Shown here one piece after another: positions 1 through 35,110 of a stretch of 64,000 nt of DNA. The DNA comes from Escherichia coli. Lineage in GTDB: Bacteria; Pseudomonadota; Gammaproteobacteria; Enterobacterales; Enterobacteriaceae. The notes under the pieces are model-generated. The model made no database searches and was not told the DNA's origin. It was given only the letters and a program-made list of their open reading frames with translations. The stretch's first letter is position 1. Every line of letters begins with the position of its first letter. The stretch is from assembly GCF_009931435.1 (NCBI RefSeq), contig NZ_CP043414.1; one strand, 5' to 3'. A program made the position numbers and the translations under genes.

Positions 1-1750
1 GCCCCTCCTTGCGTTGCCATTGCGCGACATTGAGTAACGGCGACGCGGGTAGCACCACTTCACAGGCTTCGCCACGGTTGATAGCCACCAGCACACGCTG
101 CTGATTCAGCACGCGGACAAATACCACTACGTGATCTTCCGCATATACCACCTGGCAGCCACCACGACGCAGCGCATGGCTTTTCTTACGTAGCGCAATC
201 ATTCGCTGGTACAGCGCGAATAATGCCGTATCCTGTTTATCCACCTGCCAGGGGAACGGTTTACGGCAAAACGGATCGTTTTTGCCATCCATCCCCACTT
301 CATCACCGTAATAAATACACGGTATGCCAGGCCAGGTAAGAAGCCAGACCACCGCCAGCGGCAGACGCGCGACATCCCGACCGAGCAGCGTTTTAAATCG
401 CGCAGTATCGTGGCTGTCGAGCTGATTAAACATGCGCAATTGCTGTTGATGAGAAAGCCCTGCGCGGTAATTATCCATCCAGGCCATACAGGTTTGGGCG
501 TCAATTTGCTGCGGATCATAAGAGATATCGGTGTTGGCAAGAAATCCCCACAACGGGAATGTGAAGCCGCGATAGTTCATGGCGGCATCTTCCACATCGG
601 CCTGTAACCATTGCCGTGCATCGCCAAAATGTTCGCCGACTATATACGCTTCCGGTTGGGTTTCTTTCGCGGCTTCGGTGATCCCAGCGACGTGCTGTAA
701 ATTATTGCGCGCCCCACCCGCTTCTCCCAGCATATGCACCACATCCAGCCGCCAGCCGTCCATATTCCATGGTGCTTTCAGCCAATGGCGGACAATGCTG
801 TCTTCCCCGCGATAAATTTCATTCACCAGACTTTCCGATTGATAATCCAGCTTCGGCAGGCTGGCATAGCCCAGCCAGTCGAGCGCCGTGCCATCATCGC
901 TAAATGAGTACCAGTCACGCCAGGGCGATTCGGGGTTGTGACAAGCGCCACCTGTCCCACGATTATGTCGGTCAAACCAGGCATGGGAATCGCCACTGTG
1001 GTTAAACACGCCGTCCAGCACTAGCCGCATTCCCATCTGCTGTGTATTGTTTCGTAAACGCAGCAACGCCCCATCGCCGCCAAACTGCGGATCGACATGG
1101 CGATAATCCTCGGTATCGTATTTGTGTACGCTGGGAGCTTTAAACACCGGATTAAGATACAACGCCGTCACGCCAAGTTTTTTCAGATACGGCAGTTTTT
1201 CGCTGATACCATCCAGATCACCGCCATAGAACGTTGATCCGCCCGCCTGCGCCGTGACCGGCTCATCCCAGTCACGCAAGATGATCTCTTGTCCGGCTGC
1301 GTGATGGTAATAGATATGATCCTGTTCAGCTTCGCGAGGAAGACTACGGGCGAAACGATCAGGAAAGATCTGATAAAAAATCTGATCCGCAGCCCATTGT
1401 GGGCCGATATCCGGGACATCGACGGCAAACTGCTCCAGTCGTGCTGGCGGCATTCGGCTGAAGCCCTGCGGTGTAAACCAACGCTGGCGATCGTGCCACA
1501 ATAATTTGAAGCTATAGCGCCGCCGGGGTTGCCCAATGGAAATATCGATGGCCGCCCGCCATGCCGTGACACCAGGCTGGGGCTGACTGCGCTGCTTATG
1601 CATCGGTACTGACGTTTCTTCGTTATCGTTTTCTGTACGTAGCATAATCCGCTGAGGTGGGTCTTCGCCTGTCAGCCACAGTGTAATGAGTAGTTGATCT
1701 TTGCTTTGTTTAACAAATGGGGGCACCGGCAGGTGCCATGCATTTAACAT
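1..1750 (-). CDS. malZ: Maltodextrin glucosidase MalZ, 3' end cut by window edge (about 583 codons present)
   Basis: Reverse-complement translation from ATG at 1750 reads [21 protein letters not shown]... and runs in frame to position 2 (...[20 protein letters not shown]), matching recalled MalZ. Absent from the ORF track because the stop lies outside the window. Confidence 0.9.
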
Positions 1751-29982: not shown

Positions 29983-30333
29983 ATGCACTCCTGCTAACTT
30001 CTTATCGTTTTAACAACTGCTGTGTATTAACCGCATGACCGCTACAAAGAATCAGCCAAATGAAACCGCCCATTGTGACCCATAGCAAGGCGCATAGTTC
30101 GCCAGCCTGACCATAAGAATTGTTTCGACGGATTTCACAAACCAAAGATTGTTTACATTAGCGGATTAACACGCGCAGGATCACAAATGCAGGCATTGGT
30201 GAGCAGGAAAAAGATCGTGTTTTCGCGCCGTTACGTTTTTAACACTATTATTGCACTAATTCGCCCTTTGCAATCCATCAATGAGTAGTATAAATACGCT
30301 CAGTTACCTTCATTCAATCTATGGACACCACCG

Positions 30334-31491
30334 TTGAAACGTAGTCTGCTTTTTTCTGCCGTGCTTTGTGCGGCGTTATTGACCCCCGTCCATGCGGCGC
30401 AGCCGATCACTGAACCGGAGTTCGCCTCTGATATTGTCGATCGTTATGCCGATCATATTTTTTATGGCAGTGGTGCCACGGGGATGGCGCTGGTTGTTAT
30501 CGACGGTAACCAGCGCGTCTTTCGCAGTTATGGCGAAACGCGCCCGGGTAATAACGTTCGCCCGCAGCTGGATTCGGTCGTGCGTATTGCTTCGCTCACC
30601 AAGCTAATGACCAGTGAGTTGCTGGTGAAATTGCTCGACCAGGGGACCGTGAAGTTAAACGATCCGCTAAGTAAATATGCTCCACCAGGCGCACGTGTGC
30701 CGACTTACAATGGCACGCCTATTACCCTGGTGAATCTGGCAACCCATACCAGTGCCCTGCCCCGTGAACAGCCGGGAGGTGCGGCACATCGTCCAGTGTT
30801 TGTCTGGCCAACGCGCGAGCAACGCTGGAAATACCTTTCTACGGCGAAGCTGAAAGCCGCGCCAGGCAGTCAGGCGGCATACTCTAACCTTGCGTTCGAC
30901 CTGCTGGCAGATGCACTGGCGAATGCTTCTGGCAAGCCTTATACCCAGTTGTTTGAAGAGCAGATTACCCGTCCGTTGGGGATGAAAGACACGACCTATA
31001 CTCCATCGCCGGATCAGTGCCGACGTTTAATGGTTGCTGAGCGCGGTGCCAGTCCATGCAATAACACGCTGGCGGCAATTGGCAGTGGCGGCGTCTATTC
31101 CACGCCTGGCGATATGATGCGCTGGATGCAGCAGTATTTGTCATCTGATTTTTATCAGCGCAGTAATCAGGCGGATCGTATGCAGACGTTGATTTATCAG
31201 CGCGCGCAGTTTACGAAAGTGATTGGCATGGATGTCCCCGGCAAAGCGGATGCACTTGGTTTAGGCTGGGTATATATGGCCCCGAAAGAGGGTCGTCCGG
31301 GGATTATTCAGAAGACAGGTGGTGGTGGCGGTTTCATTACCTATATGGCGATGATCCCGCAGAAGAATATTGGCGCATTTGTGGTGGTCACTCGTTCGCC
31401 ATTGACGCGCTTTAAAAATATGAGCGATGGCATCAATGACCTGGTGACAGAACTGAGCGGGAATAAACCGTTGGTCATCCCCGCGTCCTGA
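30334..31491 (+). CDS. ampH: Penicillin-binding protein AmpH (class C beta-lactamase fold)
   Basis: 385 aa with signal peptide MKRSLLFSAVLCAALLTPVHA; SxxK motif in RIASLTKLMT. Confidence 0.9.
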   Translation: MKRSLLFSAVLCAALLTPVHAAQPITEPEFASDIVDRYADHIFYGSGATGMALVVIDGNQRVFRSYGETRPGNNVRPQLDSVVRIASLTKLMTSELLVKLLDQGTVKLNDPLSKYAPPGARVPTYNGTPITLVNLATHTSALPREQPGGAAHRPVFVWPTREQRWKYLSTAKLKAAPGSQAAYSNLAFDLLADALANASGKPYTQLFEEQITRPLGMKDTTYTPSPDQCRRLMVAERGASPCNNTLAAIGSGGVYSTPGDMMRWMQQYLSSDFYQRSNQADRMQTLIYQRAQFTKVIGMDVPGKADALGLGWVYMAPKEGRPGIIQKTGGGGGFITYMAMIPQKNIGAFVVVTRSPLTRFKNMSDGINDLVTELSGNKPLVIPAS

Positions 31492-32178
<687 letters not shown>

Positions 32179-32179
32179 T

Positions 32180-35110
<2,931 letters not shown>

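Follow-up and report, generated by a model that had tools for sequence, protein, structure and literature searches.

The systems described in Escherichia coli that lie closest to the ampH–iprA locus are (i) the tail-to-tail mscL–arfA pair, (ii) intrinsic terminators embedded in a convergent partner gene, (iii) overlapping bidirectional terminators, and (iv) Rho-dependent 3′ ends with stem-loops. In the first of these, arfA has a hairpin close to the 3′ end of its coding sequence, and cleavage or termination at this hairpin leads to a stop-less mRNA under tmRNA control. Antisense crosstalk between mscL and arfA has been demonstrated experimentally. Embedded terminators are predicted for about a third of the 58 convergent overlaps of E. 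coli, 19 of which hold one embedded terminator and 2 of which hold one for both partners (Lillo and Krakauer 2007, PMC2174442). Overlapping bidirectional terminators (Ju et al. 2019, SEnd-seq) are described together with a collision model for hundreds of E. coli genes in a preprint that cites that work (bioRxiv 10.1101/2022.10.23.513370). Rho-dependent E. coli transcripts, according to Dar and Sorek (PMC6061677), end just past stem-loops that lack a U-tract and guard against PNPase and RNase II.

The ampH–iprA locus resembles the embedded terminators (PMC2174442) in that one gene's hairpin and U-tract lie within the other's 3′ codons with no intergenic space; it differs from the convergent overlaps of that study in that the coding sequences meet without sharing a base in Escherichia (0 nt) and overlap by 4 nt in Enterobacter and Leclercia. 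With the bidirectional class it shares a convergent pair, a single hairpin, and overlapping 3′ ends, but its element is asymmetric, has a good U-tract on the ampH-sense side only, and sits inside one reading frame rather than in a shared 3′ UTR. The Rho-dependent class offers a parallel in the stable stem-loop at an mRNA end where a Rho signal is called, and in Enterobacter and Leclercia the U-tract is likewise absent; that class lacks a U-tract, whereas the hairpin of Escherichia, Citrobacter, and Salmonella is accompanied by a conserved U-rich tract. Finally, mscL and arfA are also convergent neighbours with overlapping transcript 3′ ends (PMC10070815), but stop-less mRNA control and antisense crosstalk are features of the mscL–arfA pair.

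The window is a 64,000-nt stretch of E. coli DNA (RefSeq assembly GCF_009931435.1, contig NZ_CP043414.1). Its ampH gene (30334..31491, plus strand, from the ORF list) starts with TTG, stops with TGA at 31489-31491, and encodes a peptidoglycan DD-carboxypeptidase/endopeptidase of 385 aa, which is 100% identical to the annotated ampH product of E. coli MFDS1022581 and matches K-12 b0376 in length and position. The iprA gene, formerly yaiV, occupies 31492..32115 on the minus strand and encodes 207 aa from a RefSeq start at an internal ATG; the open frame reaches 32160 (31492..32160, minus strand, 222 aa in the ORF list), and the TAA stop lies as its reverse complement at 31492-31494. Pfam PF15977 (HTH_46) is present on all IprA homologues. 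The junction (31489..31494, no strand) reads directly as gcg tcc TGA followed at once by TTA ata ctc, with a spacer of 0 nt. Annotation gives the two genes the same 0-nt spacer in K-12 MG1655 (iprA 394506..395129, plus strand; ampH 395130..396287, minus strand), in O157:H7, and in the closest genome. The two coding sequences have no base in common in the window or in any sampled Escherichia and are therefore not convergent overlapping genes in the sense of at least one shared nucleotide. The initial annotation named the genes correctly as ampH and yaiV (now iprA in RefSeq), the stop-to-stop abutment it described is real, and it soundly inferred that the two mRNAs overlap at their 3′ ends. The arrangement itself is ordinary and can be read from any annotated E. 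coli genome.

The initial annotation further held that the junction leaves no room for terminators. In effect this does not hold, as a terminator-like hairpin and U-tract lie in the last 17 codons of iprA, 11-55 nt beyond the ampH TGA, and are under strong nucleotide-level selection. The hairpin spans 31503..31535 (plus strand; inverted-repeat search and RNA fold), falls within iprA codons 197-207, and can be extended to 31501-31537. Its outer arms form a perfect 9-nt repeat, AAGGCAAAC (31503-31511) and GTTTGCCTT (31527-31535), and its inner stem, GGTTG/CAACC (31512-31516, 31521-31525), closes on the loop ATAG (31517-31520), with a bulged A at 31526. As ampH-sense RNA, it is a stable, GC-containing stem-loop, predicted at 14-16 bp, that begins 11-14 nt after the ampH TGA and folds at −21.2 kcal/mol (z −5.5, with 0 of 200 shuffles as stable); the iprA-sense fold is −18.0 kcal/mol (z −4.1). 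Directly 3′ of the GC-rich stem base lies a T-rich tract, TTTATTCATTT (31534..31544, plus strand), which corresponds to the iprA codons Glu-Met-Asn-Lys on the other strand and provides the ampH-sense side with the U-tract UUUAUUCAUUU at a T-score of 3.52. The iprA-sense tail, UUCAGAGUAUUAA, is poor in the window, with a T-score of 1.82, and in all Escherichia. The full hairpin was judged by RNA folding and T-tail score in place of an automatic terminator scan, which does not allow the bulged A and gave the inner 5-6 bp stem alone on either strand, with reported tails that are the outer stem arm. An Rfam 15 search of 30000-32400 on both strands returned no match at E≤1.

The best explanation, to which we assign a probability of roughly 0.6, is that the last 17 codons of iprA hold an embedded intrinsic terminator or 3′ stabiliser of ampH. 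With the genes tail to tail and no spacer between them, the signal for the end of ampH would be accommodated within these codons, and the stem-loop followed by its U-tract has the anatomy of a Rho-independent terminator. We infer that ampH-sense transcription terminates at this hairpin and that, from the usual 7-9 nt rule, the ampH mRNA would stop ~50 nt into iprA, near 31540-31544; the hairpin would also shield the 3′ end of the message from exonucleases. Given the embedded hairpin and U-tract, the transcript overlap on the ampH side probably amounts to only some 50 nt.

Read on the iprA-sense strand, this hairpin falls within the translated frame, where ribosomes would be expected to unwind it. 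A poor U-tract together with a hairpin under translation suggests that iprA has no dedicated terminator. Because the last 25 codons of ampH, which serve as a control, vary normally at synonymous sites (diversity 0.46) and hold no counterpart of the element for iprA, only iprA appears to lack a terminator of its own. Its transcripts would most likely run on antisense into ampH, untranslated past the stop, until they meet Rho or a colliding polymerase. A C-rich, G-poor stretch antisense to ampH, at 31258..31387 (minus strand; 100-230 nt beyond the iprA stop), is by composition a candidate Rho-loading region, with a C/G ratio on the iprA-sense strand of 1.9-2.6 in 78-nt windows versus about 1.0-1.3 elsewhere.

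The synonymous-site and covariation evidence for the hairpin comes from this analysis. Synonymous codon diversity, measured by a diversity index in 18 non-redundant species, averages 0.42 over the gene and falls to 0.07 in iprA codons 194-200 and 204-207 (p<1e-5 by permutation), and the 14-codon window 194-207 has the lowest synonymous diversity in iprA. The loop codons 201-203 vary even at the amino-acid level. The T-tract codons GAA, AAT, and AAA show little or no variation across the 18 species, and the neighbouring codons vary freely. Among the frozen codons, TTG (Leu) and CCT (Pro) are non-preferred in E. coli. A palindrome with no nucleic-acid function could arise simply because IprA has a conserved C-terminal peptide (EMNKGKL..NRLP) encoded under codon preference, and the amino acids of the stem arms are indeed conserved in all homologues, with double changes confined to three stem pairs. 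However, equally conserved residues upstream (such as Gly190/191, Tyr192, Ile193, and Ala185/186) have synonymous diversities of 0.48-0.62 compared with 0-0.2 for the stem and tail codons (p<1e-5), and the changes within the stem are compensatory or proceed via G·U. A by-product of this kind is already disfavoured, and we regard it as highly improbable.

Substitutions within the stem favour pairing in the ampH-sense RNA. Across 30 species, 94% of the stem positions scored are paired, versus 23-58% when the partners are slid, and the GGC/GCC stem base is invariant. Three stem pairs have changes on both sides. Double changes from A-U to G-C occur in L023, Yokenella, and Trabulsiella via synonymous AAA>AAG and CGT>CGC in the iprA frame, and intermediates with a G·U pair are seen in E. 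fergusonii, Raoultella, and C. sedlakii. The strands are asymmetric, with 14 G·U combinations, which pair in ampH-sense RNA only, against 2 A·C combinations, which pair on the iprA-sense side only, an excess imposed in part by the set of changes that iprA can take synonymously. A REP element or a protein-binding DNA palindrome was considered as the source of the inverted repeat and rejected because the continuous helix extends inward and G·U-type substitutions are sensible for RNA only.

The U-tract has a narrower distribution than the hairpin. It is present in Escherichia, Citrobacter, and Salmonella, is weaker in L023 (T-score 1.74), and has been lost in Enterobacter and Leclercia (T-scores 0.12 and 0.95), in which the hairpin is kept; canonical intrinsic termination is thus not the sole reason for the conservation of the hairpin. 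In Salmonella, the spacer between the genes contains another hairpin, with a T-run, and the embedded hairpin is retained too. Trabulsiella, the only case among the recovered loci in which ampH looks frameshifted, retains the hairpin. A Ser-to-Phe change in the C. freundii complex creates an iprA-sense TTTTGAG tail (T-score 3.35), a UUUU tail having arisen on that side, and the element is nearly symmetric.

SMRT-Cappable-seq presents ampH (b0376) as a monocistronic unit with start sites at 396318, 396319, and 396363, and the files searched contain no coordinate within 394.6-395.2 kb, hence no ampH termination site (PMC6131387). No 3′ end near 395,0xx is listed in the curated K-12 Term-seq table (Adams et al., PMC7815308), and the names and locus tags of ampH and iprA are absent from the TERMITe supplements searched (PMC12207403). 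These absences say little because expression of ampH and iprA is weak in the K-12 datasets consulted. On the ampH-sense strand, a region of Rho termination has been called at K-12 395316 (score 2.48, p 5e-5; PMC7815308), a call that is coarse in position, given its 800-nt windows and low read counts. Without bicyclomycin, this region has 56 reads upstream and 57 downstream, and with the drug the corresponding counts are 98 and 247 (PMC7815308). The call suggests that ampH-sense termination is at least partly Rho-dependent and that the hairpin may be leaky, and it fits either a leaky terminator with Rho as backup or Rho as the main mechanism.

Under the latter arrangement, the hairpin would mainly be a 3′-end protector, with Rho ending ampH-sense transcription downstream and exonucleases trimming the message back to the stem-loop. 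Such a role would account for the rise in downstream reads with bicyclomycin and for the hairpins without a U-tract in Enterobacter and Leclercia, and it has a precedent in the protected Rho-dependent ends of E. coli described above. It is nevertheless unlikely in our estimation, as the T-tract codons GAA-ATG-AAT-AAA are synonymously frozen in Escherichia, Citrobacter, and Salmonella, which is not predicted for a pure protector, and the Rho call that favours it is imprecise.

The same hairpin is the only one in a region crossed by both transcripts of the convergent pair, a placement that also recalls the overlapping bidirectional terminators, at which polymerases arriving from both sides pause and head-on and trailing collisions free both transcripts. 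The nearly symmetric element of the C. freundii complex has the form expected of such a site. In the window, however, termination signals are not found on both sides, the iprA-sense tail being poor as it is throughout Escherichia, and the hairpin is under translation on the iprA-sense strand. An iprA-sense end 7-9 nt past the stem would moreover fall at or before the iprA stop (31494-31492) and yield a stop-less mRNA. Weakly expressed pairs terminate less efficiently, according to the preprint on the collision model (bioRxiv 10.1101/2022.10.23.513370), and both genes here are weak in the K-12 datasets. Bidirectional termination at this hairpin is distinctly unlikely.

On the iprA-sense strand, just 8 nt separate the end of the hairpin from the iprA stop codon. 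An additional action on iprA mRNA can be imagined, in which pausing, termination, or RNase cleavage on the iprA-sense side would produce a stop-less mRNA for tmRNA, an arfA-like switch on the level of an oxidative-stress regulator. We consider this highly improbable; were it to exist, convergent ampH transcription could modulate it.

The junction beside the proposed ampH terminator or stabiliser is close to universal in the species. Of 5426 complete E. coli genomes, 5409 match a 130-nt query across the junction at a coverage of at least 80%, with a gap-free alignment in every sampled row, so the tight packing is not a one-strain accident. The spacer between iprA and ampH is 0 nt in all sampled Escherichia, Raoultella, and C. 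rodentium, 1 nt in the C. freundii complex, and −4 nt (a true coding overlap) in Enterobacter (E. cloacae) and Leclercia. Trabulsiella, L023, and Yokenella have 2-13 nt between the genes, Salmonella has 42-44 nt, and a single C. amalonaticus strain has 157 nt. It follows that close packing is conserved and the exact value of 0 nt is not. The gene order autotransporter, iprA, ampH, sbmA is kept at every locus recovered. An iprA homologue away from ampH, which would separate an ampH terminator from an element intrinsic to iprA, was sought, and none occurs among the recovered loci.

Close packing of convergent genes is common in this part of the chromosome. The 16 convergent CDS pairs between 350 and 450 kb in K-12 have spacers of 336, 102, 223, −21, 106, 0, 58, 23, 16, 77, 244, 4, 176, 53, 53, and 127 nt; 3 of the 16 are at or below 4 nt and 5 are below 25 nt. 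This frequency argues against the idea that the forced overlap serves mutual regulation, in which a cell-wall enzyme gene and a gene for an oxidative-stress regulator would control each other by antisense pairing or by transcriptional interference. The drift of the spacer from −4 to +157 nt and the extra terminator inserted in Salmonella likewise argue against selection for the overlap itself. In favour of such regulation, the anatomy makes transcript overlap unavoidable, the close packing is conserved across genera, and iprA is inducible, so that polymerase traffic into ampH can change: in E. coli W, yaiV/iprA is raised by cysteine with a log2FC of 4.5 by RNA-seq, confirmed by RT-qPCR (PMC11408624). 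The same induction contradicts the possibility, entertained alongside the initial annotation, that yaiV is untranscribed. A search of the window that allowed up to 3 mismatches did not recover the CyuR box described upstream of yaiV in E. coli W. On balance, we hold selection for mutual regulation to be very unlikely.

The importance of the element is small, as tightly packed convergent genes are common and embedded terminators are a known kind. It does serve as a caution for the reading of genomes, in which an absent intergenic space does not amount to an absent terminator. The element constrains synonymous sites in the last iprA codons, not only in Escherichia, Citrobacter, and Salmonella but also in more distant relatives. 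The point bears on any deletion, tagging, or recoding at the iprA 3′ end; with a C-terminal tag or a clean deletion, for instance, the putative 3′-end element of ampH would be lost and ampH expression could alter, and this effect on ampH is a possible confounder of iprA mutant phenotypes.

The convergent genes ampH (30334..31491, + strand, 385 codons in the ORF list) and iprA (formerly yaiV, − strand) abut without an intervening nucleotide, as the initial annotation had stated: 31480-31499 reads cccgcgtccTGATTAatact, in which the ampH TGA (31489-31491) adjoins TTA (31492-31494), the complement of the iprA TAA stop. The identical 0-nt abutment is annotated in K-12 MG1655 (iprA 394506..395129, ampH 395130..396287), O157:H7, and the genome closest to the window, and is already known from public annotation. 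A 130-nt junction probe is present in 5409 of 5426 complete E. coli genomes and aligns gap-free in every row sampled. RefSeq names the iprA product hydrogen peroxide resistance inhibitor and starts it at an internal ATG (31492..32115, 207 aa), while the full open frame (31492..32160, 222 aa) runs 15 codons further upstream (32116-32160); the ORF length first reported would correspond to the longer version. In every iprA homologue the alignment starts at this Met (MLSV...), evidence in favor of the 207-aa gene model.

Across 31000-32200, the top DNA identity among the 5426 genomes is only 98.7%, with most at 96-97%. The nearest IprA sequences (99%) come from Escherichia whittamii and Escherichia sp. 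E1V33, and one E. coli strain has an AmpH with 100% identity. The DNA may come from an Escherichia lineage that is atypical, or the segment may be recombinant. Upstream of iprA, the 969-aa ehaB/yaiT autotransporter gene (32201-35110, − strand), an IS3-split pseudogene in K-12, is intact in the window; because it lies on the same strand as iprA with a gap of 85 nt, co-transcription of the two is possible.

Tight convergent packing is an ordinary genome feature, and a 0-nt junction is not very unusual. The 16 convergent CDS pairs in the surrounding 100 kb of K-12 have spacers of 336, 102, 223, -21, 106, 0, 58, 23, 16, 77, 244, 4, 176, 53, 53, and 127 nt, i.e., ≤4 nt in 3/16 and <25 nt in 5/16, the latter being in our judgment too short for a terminator hairpin and U-tract. 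A survey of E. coli lists 58 true convergent overlaps, a configuration in which a Rho-independent terminator must fall within the coding sequence of the partner; 19 pairs have such an embedded terminator for a single partner, and 2 pairs have them for both partners (PMC2174442).

Homologues of iprA (PF15977) occur across Escherichia, Citrobacter, Salmonella, Raoultella, Enterobacter, Leclercia, Yokenella, and Trabulsiella, and the order autotransporter, iprA, ampH, sbmA is invariably kept. The spacer is 0 nt in all Escherichia sampled (coli, whittamii, albertii, fergusonii), Raoultella, and C. rodentium; 1 nt in the C. freundii complex; 2, 3, and 13 nt in Trabulsiella, the relative's locus L023, and Yokenella; 42 and 44 nt in S. 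bongori and S. diarizonae; and 157 nt in one C. amalonaticus strain. In Enterobacter cloacae and Leclercia it is −4 nt, a true coding overlap, which the Escherichia pair is not. On the basis of these sequences, close packing is ancestral, and the precise 0-nt value is not the conserved trait. The 157 nt of C. amalonaticus S646 (locus L010, 3125-3281) are a GC-rich, palindrome-rich insertion that separates iprA from ampH and replaces the last AmpH residues, such that the alignment ends at 378 and a new TAA stop is used. The 259-aa predicted protein P0074 carries the beta-lactamase-family domain PF00144 found in AmpH and is 98% identical to IprA over 61% of the query; the probable explanation is gene chimerism or miscalling on a short metagenomic contig.

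The abutment had been taken to leave no room for terminators, which is incorrect: a terminator-like hairpin and U-tract on the ampH-sense strand lie within iprA, starting 11 nt past the ampH stop. An inverted-repeat search finds there a perfect 9-nt repeat, AAGGCAAAC-N15-GTTTGCCTT (arms 31503-31511 and 31527-31535), extended inward by a GGTTG/CAACC inner stem and an ATAG loop. The ampH-sense RNA folds with −21.2 kcal/mol (z −5.5; 0/200 shuffles as stable), and TTTATTCATTT directly follows the GC-rich stem base (tail T-score 3.52), while the iprA-sense RNA reaches −18.0 kcal/mol (z −4.1) and continues into TTCAGAGTATTAA (T-score 1.82). The same nucleotides encode iprA residues 194-207 (E-M-N-K-G-K-L-V-A-I-N-R-L-P). 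No Rfam family matches the region. In its stem, U-tract, and position, the putative ampH element resembles intrinsic terminators at the sequence level; the predicted structure has their anatomy and lies where the ampH terminator is expected.

Selection on this element is visible in synonymous codon diversity per conserved residue, calculated from iprA codon alignments of 18 non-redundant species. The gene mean is 0.42, and the 23 codons immediately preceding the element have values of 0.29-0.75, while codons 194-200 (T-tract and 3′ arm) and 204-207 (5′ arm) average 0.07 (permutation p<1e-5), 194-207 being the lowest 14-codon window of the gene. The loop codons 201-203 vary even at the amino-acid level. 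Codon bias fails to explain the frozen codons because they include TTG (Leu) and CCT (Pro), which are non-preferred in E. coli. As a control, diversity in the last 25 ampH codons, where an element serving iprA would need to fall, is ordinary, at 0.46 for the last bin. Of the stem cells compared across 30 species, 94% are in standard pairs; sliding the partners by 1-3 columns lowers this to 23-58%. Three stem pairs carry double-sided changes; at one of them, in L023, Yokenella, and Trabulsiella, A-U is replaced by G-C through the paired synonymous changes AAA>AAG and CGT>CGC in the iprA frame, with the G·U intermediate present in E. fergusonii. These comparisons show that a predicted ampH-sense RNA hairpin with a U-tract is conserved and selected within the 3′ codons of iprA, and that the ampH interior has no counterpart.

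The wobble cells comprise 14 G·U, which pair only in ampH-sense RNA, and 2 A·C, which pair only in iprA-sense RNA. This asymmetry is suggestive of the ampH-sense strand but falls short of proof, given that silent substitutions are limited by the iprA reading frame. It also disfavors a protein-binding palindrome acting at the DNA level, and a palindrome devoid of RNA function is given little weight. At the other end of ampH, across 16 species, diversity falls to 0.04 in codons 1-10 and 0.17 in codons 11-20 (together 30334-30393; gene mean 0.39), which hints at a nucleotide-level constraint, e.g., translation initiation, signal-peptide mRNA structure, or regulation in common with the divergent sbmA promoter region.

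We consider the hairpin to be an embedded intrinsic terminator and 3′ stabilizer of ampH, with a probability of roughly 0.6. Transcription of ampH would stop at the hairpin and U-tract, giving an mRNA 3′ end at ~31540-31544 (K-12 ~395,077-395,081), so that the message would overlap the last ~50 nt of iprA. The claim that the two transcripts must overlap is thus upheld. Transcripts of iprA would encounter the hairpin under translation and with a poor U-tract, continue past the stop untranslated and antisense to ampH, and cross the C-rich, G-poor stretch 31387-31258 (C/G ratio 1.9-2.6 on the iprA-sense strand), which could load Rho. The overlap would be asymmetric: a short, defined extension on the ampH side and a probably long, diffuse one on that of iprA. 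Functional antisense regulation between the two genes receives small weight.

In SMRT-Cappable-seq (PMC6131387), ampH forms a monocistronic unit that starts at 396318, 396319, and 396363; the files examined contain no coordinate within 394.6-395.2 kb and so give no ampH termination site. The curated K-12 Term-seq list (PMC7815308) has no 3′ end near 395,0xx, and neither gene name is present in the TERMITe supplements examined (PMC12207403). Both genes are weakly expressed in these datasets. That yaiV is untranscribed, named initially as a possible refutation, does not hold: iprA is a live gene, rising with a log2FC of 4.5 upon cysteine addition in E. coli W, as confirmed by RT-qPCR (PMC11408624).

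A Rho termination region is called in the ampH sense at 395316 (window 31305; score 2.48, p 5e-5; PMC7815308). Reads in 800-nt windows up- and downstream are 56/57 without and 98/247 with bicyclomycin; therefore, Rho limits ampH-sense transcription across antisense iprA. Two schemes fit this: an intrinsic terminator that leaks and is backed up by Rho, or termination by Rho followed by trimming of the transcript to a protective stem-loop, a process described by Dar and Sorek (PMC6061677). That the hairpin is such a protective loop, with Rho performing termination, is unlikely; this possibility draws on the Rho call and on three comparative facts, and these keep the terminator reading from a higher probability. 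Enterobacter cloacae (L027 3121-3124) and Leclercia (L033 3124-3127), with their 4-nt iprA/ampH overlap, retain the hairpin and lack the U-tract (T-scores 0.12 and 0.95). Salmonella spacers (L021 3125-3168, S. enterica subsp. diarizonae; L028 3125-3166, S. bongori) contain their own ampH-sense hairpin and T-run, and the iprA-embedded hairpin is conserved despite this tandem arrangement. In Trabulsiella odontotermitis (L032 3178-4264), no gene is called at the ampH position, and tblastn recovers ampH as two pieces (residues 1-253 and 257-385) with overlapping coordinates, which suggests a frameshift; the iprA hairpin is nevertheless intact, with a compensated GGCAAGC/GCTTGCC stem.

A bidirectional, collision-type terminator is less probable still. 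The Escherichia element is not symmetric in the manner of the overlapping bidirectional terminators that Ju et al. described, while that of the C. freundii complex comes close. In that complex (L011, L013-L017, L019, L025), a Ser-to-Phe (TTT) change in the last 4 iprA codons yields a TTTTGAG tail on the iprA-sense side, where the T-score is 3.35 against 3.52 for the ampH sense. The element there looks like a symmetric, bidirectional terminator, and termination in the iprA direction would fall on the iprA stop codon or slightly ahead of it.

The closest known kind remains the intrinsic terminator embedded in a convergent neighbor (PMC2174442); the tail-to-tail mscL-arfA pair is alike in geometry only. 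The analysis adds evidence for the missing ampH terminator within iprA codons, where it limits synonymous sites across genera. The element is a modest further example of partner-embedded terminators and a practical caution for anyone editing the 3′ end of iprA.
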